A stretch of DNA of 64,000 bases from Squalus acanthias (taxonomy: Eukaryota), in the NCBI GenBank assembly GCA_030390025.1, contig CM059433.1, forward strand, positions 97,030,001-97,094,000, read 5' to 3'. Below the pieces are notes generated by a model. It saw nothing but the letters and a program-made list of their open reading frames with translations. It had not been told where the DNA came from and did no database searches. Numbering within the stretch: position 1 is the stretch's first letter; every line of letters begins with the position of its first letter. Positions 1 to 63,939 of this stretch are shown in pieces. The translations under genes were made by a program, and so were the position numbers.

Positions 1-121
1 TGTCCCCTTTCATTTTCATTGTACACGTTACATGCTCTTTATTTTCGTGAACATAGAATACATCATAAATACAGCCACTTAAACAATATTGAAACTAAAT
101 TCTGCTATTTCTTCTTTGCAG

Positions 122-571
122 GACCGGCACGATGGAGTTAACAGCCACAGTTCGAGGCTGTCCCAACTCGGGTCGGTCTCCCAGGGACACTACTCAACGG
201 CTCCTCCGCTCTCTCACACCCCGACGTCGGACTTCCAGCCACCTTATTTCCCTCCTCCTTACCAACCTCTCCCTTACCACCAGAGCCAGGATCCTTACAC
301 GCACGTCAACGACCCCTACTCCCTGAACGCCCTGCACCAACCCCAGCAGCACCCCTGGCAGCAGAGGCAGCGGCAGGACGTGGGTGCCGAGCCAAGCCTT
401 CTACACCAGCCCCGGGTTCTGCCCCAGATCACAGGGCTCGACCCTCGCCGGGATTACCCCGGCGTGCGGCGGCCAGACGTGCTTGTCCACTCTGCTCATG
501 GACTCGATTCGGGGATGGGAGACAGCCTGTCTCTGCATAGTATCAGCCATCATGGAATGGAAGATATTCAG
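122..571 (+). CDS. tfap2b: AP-2 beta exon 2, Pro/Gln-rich activation domain with PY motif (PPPY 251-262)
   Basis: Acceptor ttctttgcag|GAC, donor CAG|gtgaga; [22 protein letters not shown]...[11 protein letters not shown]...GMEDIQ. Confidence 0.97.
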
Positions 572-3500
572 GTGAGACTACAATATTGAAATTGCATTCT
601 AGTTAGTCTACAGTTTTTAATGTCGATTGTATTGCAAAGTTGTCCAATGCATTATGAAAGTTGCACGTCAGTTGTGTCGATAGGAAGGTGCCATTTATCG
701 GCTAATATTACGACAGCACGTCAAACATTTTGTCGTTTTGACTTGCAACTTCTATCCCATTGCATATATTGACAAATTGTTAACTTACACCTTGAAGAGG
801 TACAAAACTCTGTTCACTACAATAGTGACTGAAACTACAAACTTTTCTTGATCGAACCCTTTACAAGATTGAGTGGTACTACTTTAGGTCAAGTTATTAT
901 AAAGGCCTATATCATTGATATATTCCAGAGTAAGTCGCACTCCATTAGGAGAGCAGTCCCCTGGAACCCAGTGTGAGGTGCAAATTATCAACGCTCCCTT
1001 TACAGTCTACACTACATACATATAGTTCCCTCTACCATTAGTACAGAACCTGTTTCTGTTAAATAAATACTCCGTCGGCCACAAAATTGTCTTCGCTTAT
1101 CAGAACTAGCCCCCAGAGAGGAAATCATATTGGAATATGAATGATGGTGTTCCATAACACCATTTTCTGATGTGCATTTAACTGCAATAAAACGATTTCG
1201 TGCATCTAATCCATTTGTATTGTTATTTCAATTTATTTTGGTGAGTCGATTTCATAGTAAATAAATGCAATAAAATAGTAGCCGTACAATTAGATTTGAT
1301 GAGATTTGATGCAGAATTAGAGCCTGTGTGGAATTAGAAGACTGCTAAGTTGCTACACACGTATAATGGGAGGTGGGGTGTGGAAAGGAGGGGGCGTTCT
1401 CTGAGCACACAAAGTATAAACTACTGGACTTCCTCTAGTTTACGAGTAATTCAGGATAGCATTCAGGAAACAGTACTGTCTAGTTGATCGCTGTAACAAA
1501 TTATCTTATAGCATTTTTGATTAAATAGATGTTAGTTAATTTGTAATACTCTGAATGTGTGTACATGTGTGGAATTTGGCAATTATGGAGAGTATATAAG
1601 ATAACATTCTGAAAATTGGTACTTTAGTGACCCTGAAATCAGTACCTATCCCATGAAAAGCTATGTATTGAGTACTGAGCCCTGTTATTGTGTCGCACTT
1701 GCTCAATGGATTGTCTTTTTGTGGATGAAAGGTTACCAAGTTTTTGGAGATTGGTATAAGCATTACCGACCTGAGTTGGAAAATAATATTATTAGCAATT
1801 GAAGCTTGAATTATACTCCATTTATACTTAAAAAGGAAACATAGTTTGTTTGAAAAACATGTACTTGCCCATAAACAAAGATGGCCGCTGTGGTCTGCAA
1901 TTCCGCTCTCTCTATAACGAATGTGTGTAGCGCCTTGTAACATTTGGACAAGGGTAGAACTAAAAGGATACCGTGCACATTTAATCCTTAATTCACAATT
2001 GGTTGATGCAAAGCATGTATATTTTTAAAAAAACAATCATTGCGTATTCATATTTGTTGACTGCAGAATATTGCAATAATCGCGGCAACACTTTACAGAT
2101 TTTTGAATTGGCTTGAATGTTTGGCTTTGGATCAGTCTGGTATTCAGACACAACCTGACTGCGTTTCGTTTGTAGCTTTAGTTTGCCCCGACCTTTTTAT
2201 TAAATCCTCCAGACAATAATGTTGGGGGCATTCAGTTGCGTGACAAGGTACCGGACAGACACGTTCTTTCCTTTCACGGAAGATAAATTTGTTTCACTTA
2301 ACTAAAACGTAAATAACGACACTACCGAATCATGACTTTACAAAGTGCTTAACGCTGCAATCTGTGACTGTCTTGGCCGCTATCCTGTTCCCGGTGATCA
2401 GTACAAGTTAGAAATGTAGTGCGTTTGTTCCTATTGTTACCGAGTCATTTTTAGTAAGATGAAGTGGCAAGAAGAATGGAGTATGCTAAATGCCGCGCTG
2501 ATTTATGCAAAAAGAATATTATCACTTCCAAATGTTCACAGGGGACAAATTTCAGGTCGTTGTGGACATCTGTCCTTCTATAGCTCATTCACTTGGTAGC
2601 TGCTACTGTCTGAACGAATGAGGCGATGATGTAGATTTATTGATAGCTTCAAACCAGGGTCTATGAAGATCACTTATTGTATTGCTGTCTTCTCCGTGAC
2701 ATTTTGTGCGCGCGTGTTCGAGTACGTGTTTCAGCAGGGGACTACATCAGTACGAGTAGGCTTGTAGCTGTATGTTTTAACTACAGAACGACTACCATTT
2801 AACCATGCATTTATTCATTGACTGCATTATTATGATAGGCACACGTAATTTGTCATAACTATATTTTTGCAAATTTAAAATTATGCATGCAGGATGGGAC
2901 TATATTAATGTCTCAGTGCGCTTGCTATAGTTATAATATTGTTTTGCGATTTCACTTCAGGACTAATAGCGTCAGCCGTAAATGTAATCAGGGGCAATGC
3001 CACAATGATACATGTACACATATCTGTCATCAACATTTTAATGTGATTCTTTTTGAATCTAAGGTGATATTATGTTGTATAAGCACTGAACTTCACAGCA
3101 TCAGTAATATAATTTACCGCGGTGCCAAAGTCGATTCATCTCCTAAGCATTCATTTGCAGTAAAATTGCATTCATTATTACAGAAATGGCCCGTGTGAGT
3201 GCAGCCAGTGTGAATGGAATGGCAGTTCACATTTGATATGTTCAGTTGAATTAAATACTTGTTCTATAGGACAGAATTGATCCGAAATGAATATATAACA
3301 GGCAATTACCATAACAGTTCAACCGCTATAAGGAACTGTAACTCTAATAACTTCCGTGCCACCTTGAAACGTTAACTCCAAATAGGGGAGCATTATTTGG
3401 GCATCCAGTTCTCAAAATCTAACAGATTAAGATTCAGCAAAATGTTTAATAAAAATGAGAACAGCTAAGCACCTCTTTATTTGCAAGGCTTTAGACGTTC

Positions 3501-12685: not shown

Positions 12686-13232
12686 AAGAACATAAGAACA
12701 TAAGAAATAGGAGCAGGAGTAGGCCATTTGATCCTTCGAGCCTGCTCCGCCATTCAATAAAATCATGGCTGATCTTCTACCTCATCTCCACTTTTCTGCA
12801 CCATCCCCATATCCCTTGATTACCTGAATATTCAAAAATCTATCGATCTCTGTCTTGAATATACTCAACGACTGAGCCTCCACAGCCCTCTGGGGTAGAG
12901 AATTCCAAAGATTCACCACCCTCTGAGTGAAGAAATTTCTCCTCATCTCAGTCCTAAATGGCCGACCCCTTATTCTGAGACTGTGACCCCTGGTTCTAGA
13001 TTCCCCAGCCAGGGGAAACATCCTCCCTGCATCTACCCTATCAAGCCCTGTAAGAATTTTGTATGTTTCAATGAGATCACCTCTCATTTTTCTAAATTCT
13101 AGAGAATATAGGCCTAGTCTACTCAATCTCTCCTCATAGGACAATCCTCCCATCCCAGGAATCAGTCTGGTGAACCTTCGTTGCACTCCCTCTATGGCAA
13201 GTATATCCTTCCTTAGGTAAGGAGACCAAAAC
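12686..13232 (-). mobile_element. 5'-truncated young CR1-type LINE (ORF2 C-terminus plus 3' UTR)
   Basis: ORF 12782-13255(-) reads FWSPYLRKDILAIEGVQRRFTRLIPGM...RTRGH...FFTQRVVNLWNSLP; (TTCTTATG)n tail; ACAAT TSD at 12681-12685 and 13231-13235. Confidence 0.93.
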
Positions 13233-13949
13233 AATGATAATGCTATTGATTGCATTTGTTACTTAAAGTTTTTACATATGATCAAATCACTAAAGAGGGT
13301 TTACCTACACAGGCAGGACTGGATGCTTCCCCACAATCTGCACCTTAAACTGATAAAGTTAGGGCACACAATACTAAAGATAACCATGAAGAATATAGAA
13401 AATAAAGTAGGGGAAGGTGAAATGGGAGCTGAGGAAGACTAAAAGGAATATGAGAAAACACTAGCAGATGCTATAAAAGGAAATAGTAAAGAGTTTTGTA
13501 TGCATTTAAAAAGTAAAATAATAGTTAAAGAGAGCATTGGACCGCCCTGGGAGAGTCTAATTGTGGAGGATAAAGGCACAGCAGAGATATTAAAGAATTA
13601 TTTTGCTTGTTTTTTTACAAATGGTGGTGGAAGTGAAAATATAGATATACTAGAGGAGGATATGGAGAAAAATGATAGATATAACAGTAGAAAAGGAATT
13701 AGTTCTGAAAAAAATTAGCAGAACGTAAGGTTAATAAGTTCCTGGACCCTGATGATATGTATCCTAGGTTGTTAAAAGCGAAGCGATAGCAGATGCTTTG
13801 ACCATAAATTTTCAATCCTTCTTAGCAATGCAAATTGTACCATTGGACTGGACAGTAGACAATCTAACATCCTTATTCAAAAAGGGAGTGAAGGATAAAC
13901 TGAGTGACTGTATGACAGTCAAGTTTAACATCAGTAGTGGACAAACTCA

Positions 13950-27953: not shown

Positions 27954-28383
27954 AGAAACATAGAATCTAGGAGCAGGAGTAGGCCATTCGGCCCGCCGAG
28001 CCTGCTCCGCCATTCAATACGATCATGGCTGATCATCCAAATCTAGTACCCTGTCCCTGCTTTTTTTAATCCCCACAGTACACATATCTCACCCTACCCC
28101 CGTAACCCCACGTATTTAATTCCCCCTAACATATCCCATCCTATCCCCATAACCCCACATATTTAATCCCCCCTAACACTAAGGGTCAATTTATCATAGC
28201 CAAATCAACCTAACCCACACATTTTTGGACTGTGGGAGGAAACCGGAGCACCCGGAGGAAACCCACGCAGACACGGGGAGAATGTGCAAACTCCACACAG
28301 ACAGTCACCCGAGGTCAGATTCGAACCCGGGTCTCTGGCGCTGTGAGGCACCAGTGCTAACCACTATGCCACCGTGTTGCCCT
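27954..28383 (-). mobile_element. Full-length tRNA-derived V-SINE (HE1-like) with internal duplication and a second CR1-derived tail
   Basis: A/B boxes, V-domain (gtgtggagtttgcacattctccccgtgtctgcgtgggtttcctcc), (tttctatg)n-type end; 8-bp TSD TGTTACAT at 27946-27953 and 28384-28391. Confidence 0.92.
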
Positions 28384-31696: not shown

Positions 31697-31872
31697 GGGG
31701 TGAATTTCCGCCGGGTGGGAAGGGGGTGGGGGTGGGGAAGTATCTCCACTCGTCCGCTGTCATTTCGCAGAAGAGACCCGCAAACCCCAGACACCGTTTT
31801 CCGGGGTTTCCTGGCTCTTTCGTGGACGTTTACCCCGGATGAGCGGTAGAACCACTGCTGAAATTCACCTCC
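31697..31872. mobile_element. MITE with GGGGTGAATTTC / GAAATTCACCTCC ends
   Basis: Terminal inverted repeats plus internal aaacccc/ggggttt symmetry. Confidence 0.6.
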
Positions 31873-31879
31873 TACGTCT

Positions 31880-32022
31880 CAGCCCAACCCCATCTCTCAC
31901 TTTGGAAAATTACGTTCTGACAGTCAACAGAGCAAACTTCCATCCTTCGGACTGGCTGGATTCAAACCGAGACACTGGAAGTAAAACACCCGCTTGCTGA
32001 TCCACTGTGCCACCCAATCCCT
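31880..32022 (-). mobile_element. Ancient tRNA-derived SINE head (LF-SINE-like)
   Basis: Reverse strand gggattgggtggcacagtggatc...ttttacttccagtgtctcggtttgaatccagcc with degenerate A/B boxes. Confidence 0.45.
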
Positions 32023-47516: not shown

Positions 47517-48250
47517 GGGCCTAGAAATAGGTCGATGGCGCGCTCATTTTACAGGTGTAAAACGGAAACCAAAGCATCCAATATGGCGGGCATTCTGCAC
47601 CGGAAGAGCAGCGCCTGGCATATTGGTAAAGCAGAAAAAGAGGCGTCCAGGGCCCGCGCCTGAAACAGGCGCTCAGGATAATAGAAACTAGGAGCAGGAG
47701 TAGGCCATTCGGCCCGTCAAGCCTGCTCCACCATTCAATACGATCATGGCTGATCATCCAAATCCAGTACCCTGTCCCTGCTTTCTCACACAGAATCCCC
47801 ATCGAGCCTGCACCGACACATATCCCACCCTATCCCCGTAACCCCACGTATTTAATTCCCCCTAACATAGCCCATCCTATCCCTGTAACCCCACATATTT
47901 AATCCCCCCCCTAACACTAAGGGTCAATTTATCATAGCCAAATCAACCTAACCCGCACATAATGTATCTAACCACCGATCTTTAAAGGGACCATTGGAGG
48001 CCTCCACTAAAAAGGTTAAGTTTGTTAAGAAAATACTTACCTCCCTCCTGATCGCCTACCCTCCACCCCCCCACCCCCAGGACCTATCTAATGCCACTGC
48101 CGGTGATGCAGCAGCTGGAAATCCAATGTCGATTTGTCGGCGAGCAACCTGGGGATGCCCGGAATGCGTCCACAGCGCGCCAGTTCATTTAAATGCCTCA
48201 GGCCTACGCGTTCTGGTGGAGGGAATGATCCCAGCGCCCAGTTCGATTTA
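47517..48250. mobile_element. CpG-rich non-autonomous TIR element hosting a SINE insertion
   Basis: Starts gggcctagaaat; GC-rich body continues on both sides of the SINE; right end uncertain. Confidence 0.5.
47683..47958 (-). mobile_element. 5'-truncated copy of the double-tailed V-SINE subfamily
   Basis: Near-identical to 27954-28220 including the internal duplication; ATAAT TSD at 47678-47682 and 47959-47963. Confidence 0.88.
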
Positions 48251-48289: not shown

Positions 48290-48465
48290 TGGTCTCTGCT
48301 TCAATAATTACTTGTGATAAAGCATTCCATGCTCTAATAACTTCAGTGTGAAAAAAAATCTTCGAATTTCTTCCTTTGTTTTTCCAGTGATAATCCCTAA
48401 AACTATGCCCATTTTACCAATGCAGCAACCACTGGAAATAATCTTTCACTATTTACTGTCTTAAG
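48290..48465 (-). mobile_element. Degraded CR1 3' fragment
   Basis: agcattccatgctctaataac..gtgtgaaaaaaaatcttc (reverse of decayed FFT.RVIRAWNAL). Confidence 0.55.
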
Positions 48466-48482
48466 ACTGATATTACAGAGTA

Positions 48483-51400
48483 GGTAGCATAGTGGTTATG
48501 TTACTGGACTAGTAATCCAGAGGCCTGGACTAATGATCCGGAGACATGAGTTCAAATCCCATCACGGCAGCTAGGGAATTTAAATTCAGTTAATTAAATA
48601 AATCTGGAATAAAAAGCTAGTATCAGTAATGGTGACCATGAAACTATCTGATTGTCATAAAAACCCATCTGGTTCACAAATGTCCTTTAGGAAAGGAATT
48701 CTGCAGTCCTTACCTGGTCTGGCCTATATGTGACTCCAGACCCACAGCAATGTGGTTGACTCTTAACTGCCCTCCTGAAATGGCCTAGCAAGTCACTCAG
48801 TTGTAAAAGAAACGCTACAAAAAACAATAAGAATAAAACCAGACGGACCACCCGGCATCGACCTCAGCAACGGCTACGGCACACCCAGCCCAGTCGACCC
48901 TGCCAAGTCCTCCTCACCAACATCTGGGGACTTGTGCCAAAATTGGGAGAGCTGTCAAGCAACAGCCTGATATAGTCATACTCACAGAATCATACCTTTC
49001 AGCCAATGTCCCAGACCCCTCCATCACCATCCCATGGTATGTCCTGTCCCACCAGCAGGACAGACCGACCAGGGGTGGTGGCACAGCGGTGTACAGTTGG
49101 GAAGGAGTGTCCCTGGGAGTCCTCAACATTGACTTTGGACCCCATGAAGTTTCATGACTTCAGGTCAAGCATGGGCAAGGAAACCTCCTGCTGATTACCA
49201 CCTACCGCCCTCCCTCAGCTGGTGAATCAGTACTGCTCCATGTTGAACATCACTTGGAAGAAGCACTGAGAGTAGCAAGGGCACAGAATGTACTCTGGGT
49301 GGGGGATTTCAATGTCCATCACCAAGAGTGGCTCGGTGGCACCACTACTGACTGAGCTGGCCGAGCCCTGAAGGACATAGCTGCCAGTCTGGGCCTTCGA
49401 CAGGTGGTGAGAGACCCAACAAGAGGGAAAAACCAACTTGAACTCGTTCTCACCAATCTACCTGTTGCAGATGCATCTGTGCATTGGTAGCAGTGACCAC
49501 CGCACAGTCCTTGTGGAGACGAAGTCCTGTCTTCACACTGAGGACACCCTCCATTGTGTTGTGTGGCACTACCACAGTGCTAAATGGGATAGATTCAGAA
49601 CAGATCTAGAAGCTCAAAACTGGGCATCCATGAGTCTCAGTGGGGCAGCAGCAGAATTGTATTCCACCACAATCTGTAACCTCATGGCCTGGCATATCAC
49701 TCACTCTACCATTACCATCAAGCCAGGGGACCAACCCTGGTTCAATAAGGAGCAGCACTAGGCGAACCTAAAAATGCAGTGCCAACCTGGGGAAGCTGCA
49801 ACACAGGACTACATGCATGCTAAATAGTGGAAGCAGCATGCTATAGACAGAGCTAAGCGATCCCACAATCAACAGATCAGATCAAAGCTCTGCAGTCCTG
49901 CCACATCCAGTCGTGAATGGTGGTGGACCATTAAACAACTAAAGTGAGGAGGAGGCTCCATGAATATCCCCATCCTCAATGATGGTGGAGCCCAGCACGT
50001 GAGAGCAAAAGACAAAGCTGAAGCTTTTGCAACCATCTTCAGCCAGAAGTTCTGAGTGGATGATCCATATCGGCCTCCTCCTGAGGTTCCCAGCACCACA
50101 GAAGCCAGTCTTCAGCCAATTCGATTCACTCCATGTGATATCAAGAAATGACTAAGCACACTGGATACAGCAAAGGCTGTACGCCCCGACAACATCTCAG
50201 CTGTCGTGCTGAAGACTTGTGCTCCAGAACTAGCCATGCCTCTAGCCAAGCTGTTCCAGTACAGCTATACACTGACATCTATCCGTCAATGTGGAAAACT
50301 GCCCAGGTATGTCCTGTCCACAAAAAGCAGGACAAATCCAATCCAACTAATTACCGTCCCATCAGTCTACTCTCAATCATCAGCCAAGTGATGGAAGGTG
50401 TCTTCAACAGTGCTATCAAGCAGCACTTACTCACCAATAACCTGCTCACTGATGTCCAGTTTGGGTTCCGCCAGGATCACTCGGCTCTAGGCCTCATTGG
50501 AGCCTTGGTCGAAACATGGACAAAAGAGCTAAATTCCAGAGGTGAGGTGAGAGTGACTGCCCTTGACATCAAGGCAGCATTTGACTGAGTGTGGCATCAA
50601 GGAGCCCTAGTAAAAGTGAAGTCAATGGGAATTGGGGGGAAAACTATCCACTGGCTGGAGTCATACCTAGCACAAAGGAAGATGGTTGTGGTATTGGAGC
50701 CCCAGGACATCGCTGCAGGAGTCCCTCAGGGCAGTGTCCTAGGCCCAACCATCTTCAGCTGCTTCATCAATGACCTTCCCTCCATCATAAGGTCAGAAGT
50801 GGGGATGTTCGCTGATGCCTACACAGTGTTCAGTGCCATTTGCAACTCTTCAGATAATGAAGCAGCCCATGCCCGCATGCAGGAAGACCCGGACGACATT
50901 CAGACTTGGGTTGATAAGTGGCAGGTAACATTCGCGCCACACAAGTGCCAGGCAATGACTATCTCCAACAAGCGAGCGTCTAACCACCGCCCCTTGACAT
51001 TCAACGGCATTACCATCACCAAATCCCCCACCATCAATATCCTGGGGGTCATCATTGACCAGAAACATAACTAGACCAGCCACATAAATACTGTGGCACC
51101 AAGAGCAGGTTGGAGGCTGGGTATTCTGTGGTGAGTGTCTCACCTCCTGACTCCCCAAAACCTTTCCACCATCTACAAGGCACAAGTCAGGGTTTTTTAA
51201 AAATTTGTTTATGGGATCAGGACGTCGCTGGCAATGCCAGCATTTATTGCCCGTCCCTAGTTGCCCTTGAGAAGGTGGTGGTGAGCTGCCTTCTTGAACC
51301 GCTGCAGTCTGTGTGGTGATGGTACTCCCACAGTGCTGTTAGGTAGGGAGTTACAGGATTTTGACCCAGCGACGATGAAGGATCGGCGATATACTTCTAA

Positions 51401-52827
51401 GTCAGGATGGTGTATGACTTGGAGGGGAACTTGGAGGTGGTGGTGTTCCCATGCGCCTGCTGCCCTTGTCCTTCTAGGTGTAAGAGGTCGCGGGTTTGGG
51501 AGGTGCTGCCGAAGAAGCCTTGGCGAGTTGCTGCAGTGCATCGTGTAGATGGTACACACTGCAGCCACGGTACGCCGGTGGTGGAGGGAGTGAATGTTTA
51601 AAGTGGTGGATGGGGTGCCAATCAAGTGGGCTGCTTTGTCCTGGATGGTGTCGAGCTTCTTGAGTGTTGTTGGAGCAGCACTCATCCAGGCAAGTGGAGA
51701 GTATTCCATCACACTCCTTACTTGTGCCTTGTAGATGGTGGAAAGGCTTTGGGGAGTCAGGAGGTGAGACACTCGCCGCAGAATACCTAGCCTCTGACCT
51801 GCTCTGTTGCCTCAGTATTTATGTGGCTGGTCCAGTTAAGTTTCTGGTTAATGGTGACCCCCAGGATGTTGATAGTGGGGGATTCGGCGATGGTAATGCC
51901 ATTGAATGTCAAGGGGCGGTGGTTAGACTCTCGCTTGTTGGAGATAGTCATTGCCTGGCACTTCTGTGGCGCGAATGTTACCTGCCACTTATCAGCCCAA
52001 GCCTGAACATTGTCCAGGTCTTGGTGCATGCGGGCATGGACTGCTTCATTATCTGTGGAGTTGTGAATGGAGCTGAACACAGTGCAGTCATCAGCGAACA
52101 TCCCCATTTCTGACCTTATGTTGGAGGGAAGGTCATTGATGAAACAGCTGAAGATGGTTGGGCCTAGGACACTGTCCTGAGGAACTCCTGCAGCGATGTC
52201 CTGGGGCTGTGATGATTGAACTTCAACCACCACAGCCATCTTCCTTTGTGCTAGGTATGACTCCAGCCAGTCGAGCGTTTTCCCCCTGATTCCCATTGAC
52301 TTCAGGAGTGTGTTGGATTACTCTCCACTTGCCTGGATGAGTGCAGCTTCAACAACACTCAAGAAGCTCGACACCATCCAAGCAAAGCAGCCCGCTTGAT
52401 TGGCACCTCATCCACCACCTTAAACATTCACTCCCTCCACCACCGGCGTACCATGGCTGCAGTGTGTACCATCTACAAGATGCACTGCAACAACTCACCA
52501 AGGCTTCTTCGGCAGCACCTCCCAAACCCGCGACCTCTACCACCTAGAAGGACAAGGGCAGCAGGCGCATGGGAACACCACCACCTCCAAGTTCCCCTCC
52601 AAGTTGCTCATCATCCTGACTTGGAAATATATTGCTGTTCCTTCATCGTCGCTGGGTCAAAATCCTGGAACTCCCTCCCTAACAGCACTGCTGGAGTACC
52701 TTCACCACACGGACTGCAGCGGTTCAAGAAGGCAGCTCACCACCACCTTCTCAAGGGCAACTAGGGATGGGCAATAAATGCTGGCGTTGCCAGTGATGCC
52801 CACATCCCATGAACGGATAAAAAAAAA
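48483..52827 (+). mobile_element. Near full-length decayed non-LTR retrotransposon (CR1/L2 group; APE endonuclease plus RT) with tRNA-like 5' head, split at 51191/52302
   Basis: NIWGL, QPDIVILTESYL, TYRPP, GDFN, SDH; NYRPISLLS, QFGFR, LDIKAAFD, GVPQGSVLGP, MFAD; ends HHHLLKGN*, gggcaataaatgctggc and A-tail; stops and frameshifts present. Confidence 0.93.
51192..52301 (-). mobile_element. 5'-truncated copy of the same LINE family inserted antisense into the host LINE
   Basis: ORFs 51787-52296(-) and 51257-51772(-) parallel host ORFs 50589-51074 and 52396-52764; TSD TCAGG at 51187-51191 and 52302-52306. Confidence 0.93.
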
Positions 52828-53230
52828 GGTTCCACGGTTTCCAAGCAATAGATAAACAACTGTGTGTATGTGGTAGTTTGAAAGTCACGTTTCACCACTT
52901 TGTTCTGGGCACTGGATCTTCCCCTGGGGCTGGGGAAGTGAGAGGTCCATACACATCAGCAATGGGGAAACTCCATGTCAGATAGACTGAGCCTTCAGTC
53001 TGTGCACAGCTTTAGGAAATGGTAACTACCCTGTACCCAGAGGCAATGTTTATATTTGCTATTGAGGTGTTGGTGCCTCTGAGGTGATGTTGAAACCAAC
53101 CTTTCAAATGGATCTCGATGCCTCTACAAGCACCTGCAGCACTTCAATTACTTCATAGCTCTACTGCAAAAGTTGGCACTGCTGGTATGACAGCACTATA
53201 GGGTAAACGGGATCTAAACATTTCTCAGGA

Positions 53231-53541
53231 GGGCAACACGGTGGCATAGTGGTTAGCACTGTTGCCTCACAGCGCCAGGGACCCGGGTTCGAATCCGGCC
53301 TTGGGTGACTGTCTGTGTGGAGTTTGCACATTCTCCCCGTGTCTGCGTGTGTTTCCTCTGGGTGCTCCGGTTTCCTCCCACAGTCCAAAGATATGTGGGT
53401 TAGGTTGATTTGGCTATGATAAATTGACCCTTAGTGTTAGGGGGATTAAATACGTGGGGTTACAGGGATAGGGTGGGCTATGTGTCGGTGCAGGCTCGAT
53501 GGGCCGAAATGGCCTCTATCTGCACTGTGGGGATTCTGTGA
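53231..53541 (+). mobile_element. Full-length single-tailed HE1-like V-SINE
   Basis: A box TGGCATAGTGG 53242, B box GGTTCGAATCC 53286, V-domain, tail gtcggtgcaggctcgatgggccgaaatggcctctatctgcactgtggggattctgtga. Confidence 0.92.
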
Positions 53542-56500
53542 AGCGCTTCTATCACTCTGGTTGAGGGTAGTACTACTATGAGATCAGACAATGAGGTAAA
53601 TGTGTAGCTTTCTTCCACAGTTTGGATCTTAGAAGCTGAGGTTGTGCAGCAGAGCAGAATGCAGGGAAGAAACTGGCTTTTGACTGCTTGCAGAGATTAC
53701 ATCTGGTACCACCATTAGTGTGACTGTGTCACAGGCACGTTTTGGATTATATTTGATTGCTAATGAATTTGGTAGCTTTTAGTGTCTAATTACGATGTAT
53801 CACCTGGAAGTGGTTCATTTAAAACATGAACCACTGACTGGGAACCACTAGGCACAGGCCACATGACATTGAATAAATAGGCATCTCTCTACTGGCTGAT
53901 CTTGAAGTGCCACTTGGGGTAGCAGATTGTGGATAAGCTGACAGTTTGGATAGCTCTGCCCTCTCGTTTGGAGGAAATATGAAATCTCTTGGGCCCCAAA
54001 AATAAGAGGGAGTGGAAAGGAAAATACTTACAAGAAAAAGATATACAGGTCCATTGGTTCAGCACATGTTGGTGTACACATTGTACCATGAAATGACAGG
54101 ATGTTGGTTTGTGCCCACGATTCCCCACATGGTATGTTTCTGATCTCAGCTGGGCTGTTAGGGCAAGGTGCCAAGTGCAGGATAACCGGTTCCCCACAGG
54201 GAGGGAAAAAAAATCGGCGGCCAATTTACCCCACACCACTCTCGCACAGCAGTCAATTAAAGAGCAGCCTTATAGCAGGTAGCCTGTCTATTCTTTCAGG
54301 CAGGGAATCATGCGTGGTGTTGGGGAAAGAAAACAACAGAAAGAGAAGATAAAAGCAAAATATTTGAGAAAAGCAGAAATCACAAGGCCGAAACGAAAAG
54401 GGATATGTATAAAAAGACACTAAACACACGCAAAAAAATAGTTACAAGGACAGCAGCACCAAATGCCTGTCACAGCTGGTTAACAAACTGGACTTTGTGG
54501 ATTAAGACAAATGAATGTTTTCTATGTGGAGCTATTATAGGGAATTAGGAAGCTACTGTGTGGATTGCAAATAACTTCAGTGCAGTCTGGCTCTGCTCCA
54601 GTGAAAAATAATAGCCAGTTCCAGCTGCATTTATATCACAGCTTTAAATTCTGATTCATTCCAAATCTGCAACTGTTCCAAATCAAAACACAAATGTCTA
54701 AACTTTGCAAATTACTTTACTTTGATGTCAGCTTGGATTTAAACCCTACTACTTGACAGATTAAAATCAGCTCTGATGTAAATGGGTTTAACTCTGGCGG
54801 CTGTTAACAGTCTGATCTGAGTTGTTGCTCACCTATTCCCAGCAGCAAGTCCTGGCACACGTTTCGGATTTGACATCTGATATCCTCCATCGTGTGTCCT
54901 TATTTAAGGCAAAGGTAATTTCAACAGTTTGGCATTATTAGATTCAATTGAGACGACTATATTCAAAACTGGATCCAATTGAAATCGTAAATAGTGTATA
55001 AGGACACTAACTACAGCAGAGAAAGAGGCAGAATCCAGATCTGAATCAAGGATGCAGTACAAATTGAGAATTCTGAGTGGCTTAGGGGTGCCACCGCACA
55101 ACGATCATCAGCTCTGGAGTCCACAGTCTGCTGTTTGATGGTGGTCTGCTGGAGAAAATCAGAACCAGACTACAGAATGCTCATTTCTGTATAAAAGGAG
55201 AAAAGGAAAGATCAGAAGAGATGAAATCAAAACTGTGATCTCGAGCATTCCCCCGCCCTTAGGTGGTTAATGATTTTGACTATGGTTAGTGAAAAAAGTT
55301 GGGCAGACACAGAGGACCACTAACAAGGAAATAAATCCAGATTCTGTTTTACACAGAATAAGGTTCAAACGCTTAGTACTTTAATAGAGAAAAGAATCCA
55401 AAACTATACTTAACAGAGTTAACACACTCTCAAGGTTGAAGAGTTTTGTTGGAGTATGATCAACAAAGCTTAACTCTGCATTGCCCTCCTTTTCTATCTG
55501 AATTAGTAGTGTTCAATGCTTACACTGGATGCAAAAAATGAAAACGTGTTCTATCATCCAACGTGCTCATCCCTCAACTCAACAAACACAAAGTAAACAC
55601 TTGCTTTGTTTAACTTGCTGGGATACCATTCTGAGACAAATGGCAGCAGCATTATTCAATCTTTACTTATTGCAAAGGAAAACGAAAACCAACAACCCAA
55701 AAGAACCTGGATGAATGTATTTTAAATCCTTTACTGCAAATGTGTGAGAGGTGAGAGCCATCGCTGCTAATGATACTGGCACACCTAGAAGCCACTGTAT
55801 ATTCTCCACTGTTTTCCATACCAGTTTAAAGGAGCCTTGCCTTTGTTACAGGGAGATGAAGCCCCAAAACACTCATGCCATTTTCATCTCAGTATTGTGA
55901 TGAGTGACTGGCATGATGATAGTTTTATGACACATCGTTTGATGCAAAATAAATATGACAAACAAATGAAGAAAATCGCTCACTATTAGAACTGCCACAG
56001 TTACTTTGTGGAATATTTTTGCCACCCTAGAAAGAAGCAACTGAACTGAAATATGTTTAAATCTATTTATGAGAATCTGTTGGTAGATATGGTTGGTGAA
56101 GAAACAAACAGCTGCAATCCCTAGAATGGTAGGGATTACCCCATAACATGTATTGCGTTTGTGTACTCAGGTACAGAGAGGTACAAAGGCCAGAAAGGTT
56201 GTAAAAATTCATAGAATTGAGCTGGTACACTAGGCAAGGTGATGTGTTCACCTGAGCTTGTCCTTCTCTCACGGTGCTGGATGTAGGCACCCTGCTGTGT
56301 TAATGCCTGCTTTGAAACAATAAGTGTTCATTGTAGTCTTATCACAGCAGCACTCCAGTGAAAAATAACAGAAAAGGACCCAATTGTTTTTAAGAATCAG
56401 GACCATGTGGATTTAGATTAGCATACTCAGTAAATTTGTGGTAGAAAAAATTCCAGATCCTGCTTTACACAGAATAAGGTTCAAACACTTATTGTGCTTT

Positions 56501-57633
56501 AATATAGAAAAAAATCCAAAGCCTATATTTGACAGAGTTAACATACTTTCAACAAGATTTGCAAGCAAAATATCCAAAGCCTGTACATTAAATAGTGTCA
56601 AAATCTGACACACTCGTACTATATCACCTCCCAGCAATTCCATTACTGTAACATCATTGGCTAAAAAACACAAAACTTGAAATATTTTCATGTTACCATT
56701 TCTGGTAAAAGCAGAAGGTACCAAACATTATTTGTTTTCTTTTATCTTGAATTAAAGTTAAATGCTTGAGTGGTTAACATGATTCATTACTAATCAATAA
56801 CTTTTGGCAAGTCCTCCATTCACTGGAGGCCAGTCAGAGGACCGGCGCATGCGAGAGTATTATTGTACATTTGGGCTAAAGTGAACAGCAGTCAGTTAAA
56901 AATTATTTTTGAGGAGAAATGTTGTGATTTGGTATATGAAGGCTTAAACAACAATAACATTGTGCTTGAGGTATCTTTTAGCATCCAAAAATTCTTTTGA
57001 AATCCTCCTATAAAAGTTCTCTGTAGAAAGTCTTGACAATACATGGCGTGTAAGAGACTATGCATATATTACATGCATATTTGCATATGTCTGAATATAT
57101 TATACCTCTGGCCTGACATATAAAACACAAGTACCTGAAGAGCTGTCATTCTTTAGTAGCTTTCATTGTCTGCTGACACCACAAAGCATGGGACTGTTAA
57201 AAAAATGTTTCTTATTTTTAAAGCAAAGCTGAACAAGGAAACTAGTAAAACTATTTTGTATGTGAGAGAGATCATTCTGCATGTCTAAATTTAATTTACA
57301 GTAACTCTTGTGCTAACTCCCTCACTCTGTGTGTGTTTGTACATGTGTGAGTCTTGTGTATCTATGTTGTTGCATACCTCACACTCTTCCCTCTCTTTTT
57401 TCCCCCAAACTCAAATAAATGTTCGATGATCATTGACATCATACAAATGAGCCTTCTTTACAGGAACCTCTTTGGGAAAAAAAGCAAGTCCCAATTGGAG
57501 TTTCCATCTATAGTAAATAAGCATAATGTTTAGGGTGCAGAAAAGAACTGAAGTTTACAGTAATGTTACTTTTGTAACTCCTGGTTCAATAGAGTGCCAT
57601 AATAGATTGAGTACTAGATGCAATATTTGTACA

Positions 57634-60780: not shown

Positions 60781-63309
60781 ACACAGATCTATGAATAAAT
60801 AAAAAAAAATGCACACGTGTTTGAACTCAGGAACACAACAAAGCTGCTTTAACCATTTAAGTTATTAAAGGGAAATGGCACAATTATTGCTTTGCAACAT
60901 GCCATCTCTCTATGACCACGTTTCCTTTTGGAGTATCAGAAAAGGCAATATCAAAGTGATTTTGTTTGTGGTTTTAATTAATCAAGAATGTATTGTTGAG
61001 AAAAATCACATTACTTGGTTGCATTCATCTGTTAACTATATCTATCATTTTTCTTAATCGAATTTGAAATGTTCCACTGCTCAACGCAGTTACACGGTTG
61101 CAATGGTTTGAAGGGGTAGTGCATTTATTGAAATGGTGATTTTAGCCAGACAACAGTGGTAGAAAAGACCACTGATCATTTCTGTCCTAGAACAAGTGTG
61201 TGGTGACGTTTGGATTTTAAACACTATTGTTCTTCTTCTCGGCAGGTTTTACGGTAAATTGCATGATGTAAAATGAACATGGTGAAATCGACTGAAGCAT
61301 TAAAACAAATTGAATGAAAGTTCTGTGTGCGTTTTGTTTAACCTCACCCCGACTGAATTGAATTCTCTTCAACAAAACTGCACCTTACTTCGTGCTGGGC
61401 TTCAATTTCAAGTATAACAAATGCTAATTTTATCCTGAATATGGACTTGTCTTTTTGGTTGTCTTTACATTAAAGCTGATTCATTGTACCTCCAGCCAGT
61501 AGGAGCGATGAAATGTAATAGATCTTTCATACTCATTATGTTTTATTTAAACAGTCTGTGCGTTAATTGCTGAGAAACCACTTATAAACACATCAGAATT
61601 AAAATATTGCAATCTTTCGCTACTAATAATATTTGAAAATATTACATCGATTTTAAAAACAGGTATGATTAACTGAAGTCGTTTTCACATTAATAACTTT
61701 TAATATGAATTCATCAAAATGGAAAATGCAGCTTTAATCGAAGCAATGTATTCATCGCTGGTGTAATACTGAATTGTACGTTTTTGTAAAAGAGAAAAAG
61801 GTTGATTTTCACTCTTGCGATTTGAGATTAATGCTGGACTATCTAACCTCACGAAGATCTGAGTAAAAGGTTAATGAAAAGACTGAACTTCAGCAGTCCC
61901 AGCTGAACACAGTAGCAGGAGACCTGGGAGAACGGTTCACTAAAAGCAGCTCTCTAGATCTCAGGCAGGCAGGAATTTGAAGGGATAATTTGACTCGGGA
62001 ATCCCGGGACAGATTCTAACCCAGTGCAAATCCAAATCCTAAGGGGTGTCTGTGCTTTAAAATAAACCTTACAGTGCGCTCTGAATATTAATTTTAAAGT
62101 TTTAAACTGCACCAATCGCCCAGGGTCAGCATTTAATGTGATAAAAGGAGGTCAATTATTATTCACTTTCCGAGCTGAGATACTCGAATGGCGGATTGCA
62201 GCAAATGTGGTTTCTACCTGTCAAGTTGAGCAGGCACGTGATTGTATATTTTATCCTTGAAATGCTTTTTGACGATTATCACCTGAGAAAAAAACGTGTA
62301 ACGTCATTTTGGAAGACGTGATAGAGAGCCTTAGATTTTTAAAAACAATTTTGCATTTCTATTCTAAGTTCTTTCCAACTGTTTATATTGCCAGTGTATA
62401 ATATTATTGTTCTCGCTTTCCTCTTCCTGCCACGCTACATCTTCCATTAAGTGGGCAGGACTGCAGCCTACAGCAAGGCATTGGCTAATGCTGCCCCATT
62501 ACCAGCTACTGAGGTACCTGCGAATGGCGTTGCATGACTCTCCCTCTGGTTCTCTTTCCTCCATCTGCCTCTTTCTCTGCTCAGTGTATCCTGACAAAGG
62601 CACAGTGGAAGATTCTCTCACCAGCAGGGGCAAATTTGCATTTCTACCACTCCAGGTCCCCACGCAATCCCTTGAACCTTGTGATATTATATTTCCTTAA
62701 TTTTTCTCTGATCCCGTACACTTGAAAATAAATACAAAAAAAATAAAAGGAATGGGAAAAGAGAAGGAATTCGGGTAGATAGCTCCACCAGCAGAGCACA
62801 GTGGGCCGAATTGTCCCCTGTACTGACAGTTCTGATTCTAATCTGGCTATTTTCAGATCAGAATGTACAGATTTAGTCATTTGTCAACCACTGCTCTCAT
62901 ATGCCAATGACACTGTTATACCTGTTACCTTGCACTGGTATTCATTACTGATTGAGAAAACAGCCAACTTGATGTGAAGCACTGTCAGCCAATTTCATAA
63001 GTGAAAGCAAAACAACTGCACGTTTACTGCATAAAATAATGTATGATTACGGAATGAATCATGGAAATGTATGGGAATTAATTTTTTGCTAGTTTTTAGT
63101 TTGTATGTGCATGAGTAACAATAACTTTGGAATTAATTCCTGGCTATCTCTTATTCTATATTATTAACAGAGGTAACATTGGAATGCACAGAACTGAAAA
63201 AGGCCACTGTGGGTCCAATCAATTCAATTAGCTATCTTTGCATATTGGATCAATAGGTTAAATTGATAAAAAGGAGCATGAAGGAGAAATGTGTTAAAGA
63301 GCAAATATA

Positions 63310-63939
63310 TATTTCATCTCAAAGTGGCTGGAATATAAAGGGGTGGAAGTTATGCTACAGTTTTATAAAGCTGTAGTTAGACCACATCTGGAGTATTGCG
63401 TTCAGTTCTGGGCACTGCACCCCAGGGAGAATATATTGACCTTGGAAGGGGTGCAGCGCAGATTAACAGAATGACACTGGGGCTAAATGGGTTGAATTAT
63501 GAGGTCAAGTTTCATAGACTAGGTTTATTTTCCCTTGAGTATAGAAGATTAAGGAGTGATCTAATTGAGGTGTTTAAGATGATTAAAGGATTTGCTAGAG
63601 CAGTTAAAGAGAAACTATTTCCTCTGGTGGGGAGGCCTGAACAAGGGGGCATAACCTTAAAATTAGAGCTAGGCCATTCAGGGGTGATATCAGGAAGCAC
63701 TTTTCACACAAAGAGTAGTGGACATTTGGAACTCTCTTCCCCTAAAAAGCTGTAGAGGCTAGGTCAATTGAAAATGTAAAAACTGAGATTGATAGATTTT
63801 GTATGGTAAGGGTATTAAGGGGTATGGAACTAAGGTGAATAAAAAGAGTTAAGATACAGATCAGCCATGATGTAATTGAATAGTGGTGCAACAGGCTTGA
63901 GGGGCTAAATGGCCCACTCCTGTTTCTATGTTCCTCTAT
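63310..63939 (+). mobile_element. CR1 LINE 3' fragment
   Basis: YKAVVRPHLEYCVQFW...LGLFSLEYRRLRSDLIEVFKMIKG; tail gatcagccatgat...aatggcccactcctgtttctatgttcc. Confidence 0.9.

Follow-up and report, generated by a model that had tools for sequence, protein, structure and literature searches.

A head derived from tRNA and a T-cluster-poor sense strand in an elasmobranch Zenon LINE suggest transcription by RNA polymerase III

A 64,000-nucleotide stretch of spiny dogfish (Squalus acanthias) DNA (assembly GCA_030390025.1, contig CM059433.1, positions 97,030,001 to 97,094,000; hereafter the window) carries, within 48483-52827, a copy of the elasmobranch Zenon long interspersed element (LINE) that begins with a tRNA-like head bearing the A and B boxes of an RNA polymerase III (Pol III) promoter. 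To judge from the published consensuses, this head is a fixed part of the elasmobranch Zenon family and not a chance neighbour. The sense strand of the copy is purged of terminator-like T clusters beyond what codon controls and 71 related open reading frames (ORFs) show. On this sequence evidence we consider it probable, at roughly 0.6, that the full-length 3.3-kb Zenon RNA is made by Pol III. The approximately 3.2-kb element of the original prediction corresponds to a host copy of 3230 nt, but the span also holds an inverted 1.1-kb sister of the same family.

The locus is assigned to elasmobranch Zenon, in the CR1 group of LINEs, by nucleotide identity over its first 322 nt, since 48483-48804 is about 95% identical, by eye, to SquAca_Zenon-1 (16 substitutions and one insertion). 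The published Zenon consensuses were compared over their first 400 nt (Table S2, PMC13343379), and all statements about them refer to that part. The copy has the features of the family, namely a single ORF for an apurinic-type (APE) endonuclease and a reverse transcriptase (RT), no ORF1, a poly(A) tail (A9 at the host end; the sister likewise terminates in an A run) and more than 80% identity to the consensus. Zenon LINEs have been described from five elasmobranchs as well as from coelacanth and hagfish, and in every case they lack ORF1 and have a poly(A) tail; in the elasmobranchs the ORF keeps more than 84% identity over the five species, and near-full-length copies number 612 in the stingray and 2313 in the white shark (Table S3, PMC13343379, 2026). 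An intact ORF is kept by 3 of the 612 copies in the stingray and by 1 of 1419 in the whale shark. SquAca_Zenon-1, -2 and -3 and the CarCar, ScyCan, RhiTyp and HypSab Zenons of that study fall in the same length class (2886-3314 nt, against 3230 nt here), and the published material reveals no structural difference between them and the window copy. Because the copy matches these consensuses, the family and its missing ORF1 are already described, and the original prediction of an undescribed system fails for the ORF1-less, poly(A)-tailed architecture. What appears new here is the tRNA head, the putative promoter and the terminator purge of Zenon, although an earlier note on the head may exist. 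The available main text of PMC13343379 and its preprint make no mention of tRNA, promoter or Pol III, and a whale shark preprint names Zenon once and tRNA never. In the literature that could be searched, neither a tRNA-headed shark Zenon nor a Pol III-driven autonomous LINE was found, subscription journals, Repbase and Dfam being outside the scope of that search. A contig search with the RT piece gave no relatives among 119 stretches, and a second search returned distant LINEs only and no shark copy.

Motif searches placed the A box at 48485-48495 and the B box at 48549-48559 (core 48550-48558), where the original prediction had put them. The two boxes, 65 nt apart, stand at the 5' end of the element with tRNA-like spacing, which is the arrangement of a type-2 Pol III promoter. 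The Rfam tRNA model matches 48484-48563 weakly, with 25.6 bits (E=0.0056), under its gathering score of 29. ARAGORN reported no tRNA gene in the window and none in 38 of the 80 control loci described below; these negatives are uninformative because the program misses the Zenon head too. Elsewhere in the window, A and B boxes are paired in just two short copies resembling short interspersed elements (SINEs), near 28318-28371 and 53242-53295, and no such pair was found upstream of 32 control LINE ORFs.

The same head and leader are present in all seven elasmobranch Zenon consensuses, which represent five species (white shark, whale shark, catshark, stingray and, with three rows, spiny dogfish), and in none of the three Zenons from hagfish and coelacanth. 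That the head might be missing from other copies was the main objection foreseen in the original prediction, and these seven rows remove it. By eye, all seven have their first base 5-10 nt upstream of the A box, as expected of a Pol III start. When 1,003 consensus rows were searched over their first 400 nt, four exact B-box 11-mers gave six matches, all in elasmobranch Zenon; one leader motif occurred in seven rows, again all elasmobranch Zenon, and another in those seven and one CR1 row. An independent locus in the horn shark, the gene model P0001, also has the leader followed by endonuclease sequence. This model is of an immunoglobulin-domain gene, to whose C-terminus the Zenon leader and endonuclease were joined, probably through an annotation artefact. 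Comparison of the window with itself revealed no second copy of the head and no short SINE with both head and tail.

Some details of the head concern its RNA form. A 21-nt tandem duplication at 48504-48543 comprises the anticodon arm plus the extra arm, so that in the dogfish-type head the extra arm resembles a tandem duplicate of the anticodon arm. The white shark and catshark consensuses have, by eye, a different paired stem around the same extra-arm loop. Retention of the stem with different paired bases in the dogfish and in these two sharks is a hint of constraint at the RNA level. The predicted folds of the head and of two leader stretches were not significant (z -0.6 to -1.0). Processing of the head by RNase P was considered and is unlikely, no acceptor stem being visible by eye in the consensuses. 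Ribozyme-headed LINEs without ORF1 are known in the R2, RTE and Ingi types. At the 5' end of the present element a ribozyme like that of hepatitis delta virus was not found, the Rfam search of 48300-49000 to E=5 returning the tRNA and two chance matches, although a divergent one could be missed in this way; no ribozyme or internal ribosome entry site family matched the head and leader region.

The second line of evidence is the scarcity of T runs. Of 604 stretches matched in reference assemblies of bacteria and archaea, 563 encode relatives of the LINE ORF studied here. The best 80, which look like animal DNA contaminating metagenome-assembled genomes, were taken as control loci; 71 of them had 1400 or more aligned nt and were tested (nine were dropped). 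As predicted, the host sense strand contains one TTTT (50025-50028), and that of the sister none outside the T5 of its tail, whereas two CR1 fragments of the window have three in 611 nt and four in 631 nt; TVTTT is absent from 3221 nt of the host. TTTT and TVTTT were the shortest terminators tested in B2 SINEs (PMC8466645). Counted together they occur once where 5.3 are expected under synonymous-codon permutation of 907 host codons (P=0.010, observed/expected ratio (O/E) 0.19). T clusters, defined as at least four T in five nt, number 2 in the coding region against 8.9 in two runs of the same permutation (P=0.002 and P=0.003, O/E 0.22), and 2 against 11.0 over 3221 nt under dinucleotide shuffling (P=0.004), and T3 runs number 9 against 15.3 (P=0.012) and 15.4 (P=0.011) in two runs of codon permutation (O/E 0.59). 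On none of these three measures was any of the 71 controls as low, the control minima of O/E being 0.63, 0.70 and 0.78. The T-cluster deficit is present in all five segments of the element. Runs and clusters of A, C and G are not depleted (C clusters number 47 against 35.8 expected), nor are the CR1 fragments of the window, and the phenylalanine codons TTT and TTC are used in a ratio of 4:18 in the host and 10:4 in CR1. At the 5' end no T4 run occurs, by eye, in the seven elasmobranch Zenon rows, as against nine of 13 spiny dogfish CR1/L2 rows of one supplement page. These results demonstrate that the sense strand is purged of terminator-like T clusters beyond codon controls and 71 related ORFs; in that sense, with O/E below every control, the body is terminator-free, though strict T4 counts alone are not significant. 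Two control loci, L001 (70-2850) and L051 (22-1839), both with their 5' ends missing, have one TTTT each (3.9 and 7.0 expected) and near-normal T clusters.

The region between head and ORF bears on how the protein is made. VLLTNIWG begins at 48907, 424 nt from the start of the head, and because no more than this separates the two there is no room for ORF1, in agreement with the predicted leader of about 400 nt. The ORF frame is preceded by a TGA at 48757-48759 and, as had been claimed, has no ATG between this stop and the endonuclease; it is open from 48760 up to the endonuclease, and the coding pieces have their first in-frame Met at 49630. In the host, which has a private extra C near 48775 absent from the consensuses, an ATG at 48750 stands one base off-frame. 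Because the leader includes an A-rich linker of variable length, this upstream ATG stands in differing frames among the consensuses. At 48833-48835 the host has ATA and most consensuses have ATG in the +1 frame, a frame that is directly readable in the stingray and in the host copy only. Six of the seven elasmobranch consensuses have an ATG at a start-like distance but one base off-frame, and none of the six readable ones has, by eye, an open in-frame AUG. In a survey of 89 full-length related ORFs (30 without the motif), the predicted start lies 8-40 residues before the catalytic Asn in 50 of the 59 that have the motif, and an in-frame Met is present in 25 of 32 control loci. Like the N-termini of its relatives, the ORF-frame leader is basic (K+R 0.28, against a median of 0.20), and the +1 frame is not (0.07).

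Searches for relatives of this leader were negative. Its ORF frame has no Pfam match, none of 61 candidate homologues of its peptide scored, and a library of 1.84 billion sequences gave two low-complexity false matches; the 48750 frame, when compared directly with P0001, yielded nothing significant. Inspection by eye of the stretch from the conserved +1 AUG to the catalytic Asn revealed neither a canonical -1 slippery site nor a near-cognate start that is conserved. The idea that the leader is the Deu domain of SacSINE1 was rejected, as two motifs from the printed alignment match the window at chance level and never in the leader. A Meta domain after the head, as in MetaSINE, gave no match at up to three mismatches to one printed motif. 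From the leader and the consensuses, non-AUG or recoded initiation is plausible.

The explanation that we favour for these observations is transcription of the whole element by Pol III. An ancestor in the shark/ray lineage would have gained, probably through template switching, a SINE-type head of tRNA origin at its extreme 5' end. The head would serve as an internal type-2 promoter, with TFIIIC on the A and B boxes and a start a few bases upstream of the A box, and Pol III could read the approximately 3.3 kb as selection had, presumably for this reason, stripped the sense strand of T clusters, coding region included. The RNA may end at a T stretch past the AATAAA and hairpin, followed by an A tail, in the manner of T+ SINEs, as the two copies weakly suggest. 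Target-primed insertion by way of a 3' structure is established for CR1-group LINEs; here the ORF protein would bind the 3' stem-loop and insert the RNA, and the promoter would be carried along. The likeliest routes to translation would be AUG-independent or recoded initiation on uncapped RNA, or a supply of capped Pol II read-through RNA. In its most complete form, which we put forward only tentatively, at well under even odds, the shark/ray Zenon would be an autonomous, protein-coding element with one 3.3-kb Pol III transcript that acts as mRNA and also as template. This fusion of SINE and LINE would have become fixed before the shark-ray split or across it and been purged of terminators throughout the coding sequence; its translation would need neither a cap nor an in-frame AUG, the conserved leader recruiting the ribosome.

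Several points weigh against transcription by Pol III and the form just described. Pol III RNAs are uncapped and poorly translated. According to the published discussion, non-LTR (long terminal repeat) retrotransposons use Pol II, and the processivity of Pol III limits element length (PMC10886601). In the stingray consensus the B box is imperfect and the extra arm is shortened. The original prediction had argued from strict T4 runs, and on that measure the single run differs from the mononucleotide shuffle (5.2 expected, P=0.037) but not from the dinucleotide shuffle (2.6, P=0.24) or codon permutation (2.8, P=0.19), with three of the 71 controls equally low; we regard this test as underpowered, and the depletion claim stands for TTTT/TVTTT, T clusters and T3 runs. 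The cluster statistic was picked post hoc, after the scarcity of T-rich 5-mers had been noticed, and an alternative measure, five T in seven, is borderline (P=0.06). The whole-length T test concerns one decayed copy, and the sister alone is not significant (2 against 3.2, P=0.36). The controls are 32-40% identical at the RT, among the matches listed, are mutually non-independent and are mostly T-richer, with eight of the 71 at 25% T or less. Finally, TTVTT, TTTVT and TVTTT are all rare, and therefore specificity of the purge for terminators is not established.

One alternative is that Pol II transcribes the element from a promoter in or near the head, the head being a relic or having been co-opted for Pol II, and that the poverty in T arose otherwise, for example because polypyrimidine splice acceptors or U-rich decay or 3'-processing signals are avoided. 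Pol II is the default for LINEs in the published accounts (PMC10886601, PMC5786205), a capped RNA would account for translation, an AATAAA lies 46 nt ahead of the A tail, and every T-rich 5-mer is rare, beyond the tested terminators. However, C clusters are not depleted, and polypyrimidine avoidance is therefore disfavoured; the 71 related ORFs, presumably transcribed by Pol II, show no such purge; and the 5' ends just before the A box and the retention of both boxes in sharks and a ray are not what this alternative leads one to expect. We think that it is unlikely. A variant of the favoured reading, which we hold to be more doubtful still, is a division of labour in which the Pol III RNA is the template and the protein, made from capped Pol II read-through or spliced transcripts of other copies, acts on it in trans by way of the 3' stem-loop, so that the element resembles a giant SINE encoding its own helper. 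The poor translation of uncapped RNA, the stable 3' hairpin of both copies and the hundreds to thousands of near-full-length copies given above speak for such a scheme. Selection on the ORF would, however, be hard to sustain without cis preference, and the ORF is conserved over the five species as cited, with a ratio of nonsynonymous to synonymous differences (pN/pS) between host and sister of 0.62, itself a weak indication; a start codon would still be needed.

As for translation, one could envision an entirely canonical start, in which the leader AUG (48750) of the master copies is in frame and the consensuses err in the length of the A-rich linker. The host AUG is off-frame through its one private extra base, the ORF frame beyond the stop is open, one dogfish consensus has the AUG frame equal to the ORF frame, though containing a stop, and the relatives start at a similar distance from the catalytic Asn. 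Set against this are the lack of an open in-frame AUG in the readable consensuses, the +1 frame shared by white shark, catshark and stingray, and horn shark P0001, in which a single frame, +1 in the window, covers both leader AUG regions. A canonical start has a real chance of being correct, if a minority one. The last alternative, that the head is an independent SINE that landed beside a 5'-truncated LINE, could appeal to the lack of a convincing target-site duplication (best 4 bp) and of a second head in the window. The consensuses of five species show the same head, leader and ORF start in one piece, and the horn shark locus independently has leader then endonuclease. Because the elasmobranch consensuses carry the same head, a chance neighbour is essentially refuted, and we consider it very improbable.

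The anatomy of the locus is summarized in Table 1. The host consists of 48483-51191 plus 52307-52827 on the + strand, and the window's self-comparison gave two related pieces, host and sister, without any further copy. The sister is 88.5% and 92.4% identical to the host over two aligned stretches and is flanked by a 5-bp repeat (51187-51191 and 52302-52306). Twin priming was rejected as the origin of the inverted piece, because this carries a tail of its own and overlaps the host sequence with 88-92% identity. The 3' hairpin is more stable than expected in the host (z=-3.3, with one of 200 shuffles equally stable) and the sister (z=-4.0); ahead of the terminal A run the sister has T5 and the host a single T, in these two copies only. 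The search for a target-site duplication around the host gave at best 3-4 bp, within chance. The closest named match to the host protein is a horn shark gene model (70% identity). At 3.2 kb and with an endonuclease and RT, the element falls outside the SINE class, which is short and non-coding. The locus is an old, decayed and inactivated copy of a single-ORF, poly(A)-tailed, ORF1-less LINE encoding endonuclease and RT.

Table 1. Features of the Zenon host copy and of the sister inserted in it (window coordinates).
Feature	Position	Strand	Remarks
tRNA-derived head	48483..48563	+	A box, B box, anticodon-like arm, long extra arm; about 6 nt of consensus 5' end missing or diverged
Leader	48564..48906	+	Conserved in sharks and a ray; not Deu domain
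APE endonuclease domain	48907..49484	+	Small deletion near 48955, two stops; Pfam PF14529 (E=1.1e-09), PF03372 (E=1.9e-06)
Endonuclease-RT linker	49483..50268	+	Contains stops; carries the sole host sense-strand TTTT
RT domain	50271..51191	+	Stops; 15-nt deletion relative to sister; Pfam PF00078 (E=2.7e-33)
5'-truncated sister copy, same family	51192..52304	-	Reverse insertion inside host; own tail with AATAAA, hairpin, T5, A run
C-terminal part of single ORF	52307..52764	+	Ends ...HHHLLKGN stop; one frameshift near 52381
Short 3' untranslated region	52765..52827	+	AATAAA (52773), stem-loop, poly(A) A9 (52819-52827)

SINE-headed variants are known for the BovB LINEs. The lepidopteran Zenon and its deleted derivative Persaeus resemble the shark element in length (about 3.3 kb), CR1-group membership and poly(A) tail, but the Zenon-derived 5' end of Persaeus is described as without tRNA homology or a Pol III promoter (PMC6740152). 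T+ SINEs (B2, Dip and Ves; PMC8466645) have, as here, a tRNA head with A and B boxes and avoid internal terminators, and they share with the sister copy the order AATAAA, T stretch, A tail; SINEs are, however, 100-700 bp long and non-coding (PMC10886601), whereas the shark element, at 3.3 kb, codes for an endonuclease and an RT. RTE-1_DAn and elements related to it are LINEs with a tRNA-like sequence and thus a partial precedent; they belong to the RTE clade, and position, promoter and terminators are not described in the published passage (PMC5786205). The TRIMp3 elements Cassandra, Helenus and Ajax share a small-RNA-derived Pol III promoter, but are of LTR type, non-autonomous and at most 1263 bp, and their autonomous partners were argued to need Pol II (PMC10886601). 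SacSINE1 and other Deu-SINEs are tRNA-headed retroposons of sharks, as here, with a tail attributed to an L2 or CR1-4_DR-like LINE (PMC5499810). The leader is unlike the Deu domain printed in the supplement of PMC7245038, and SacSINE1 is set apart by way of that alignment and not of its own sequence.

The window contains other repeats. A second family of short tRNA-headed SINEs, presumably HE1/V-SINE, with a 47-nt tandem unit, lies at 27960-28383, 47681-47960 and 53230-53503; its A and B boxes (28318-28371 on the - strand, 53242-53295 on the + strand) have no similarity to the Zenon head. The CR1 3' fragments used as controls lie at 12690-13300 (-) and 63300-63930 (+) and are 68% identical to each other. 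The stretch 31700-32012 (-) has an A-box match, a degenerate B-box-like stretch and a GC-richer body and is possibly an old SINE, perhaps LF-SINE-like. A repeat pair of 106-109 nt (55328-55433 and 56444-56552) is 85% identical. An exon-like open frame at 83-586 (+), which we take to resemble exon 2 of a TFAP2-family transcription factor gene, found no match in an Atlas search.

In the textbook division, as given in the cited discussions, LINEs are transcribed by Pol II and encode protein and SINEs are transcribed by Pol III and do not (PMC10886601, PMC5786205). Repeat annotations may split tRNA-headed Zenons into separate SINE and LINE calls. If the favoured reading is true, Pol III can make a multi-kilobase coding retroelement RNA once terminators have been purged, and the element would offer a natural test of the translation of uncapped Pol III RNA. 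The known flow of parts, from LINEs into SINEs, would here be reversed, and a successful shark family with thousands of near-full-length copies would have fused the LINE and SINE strategies.

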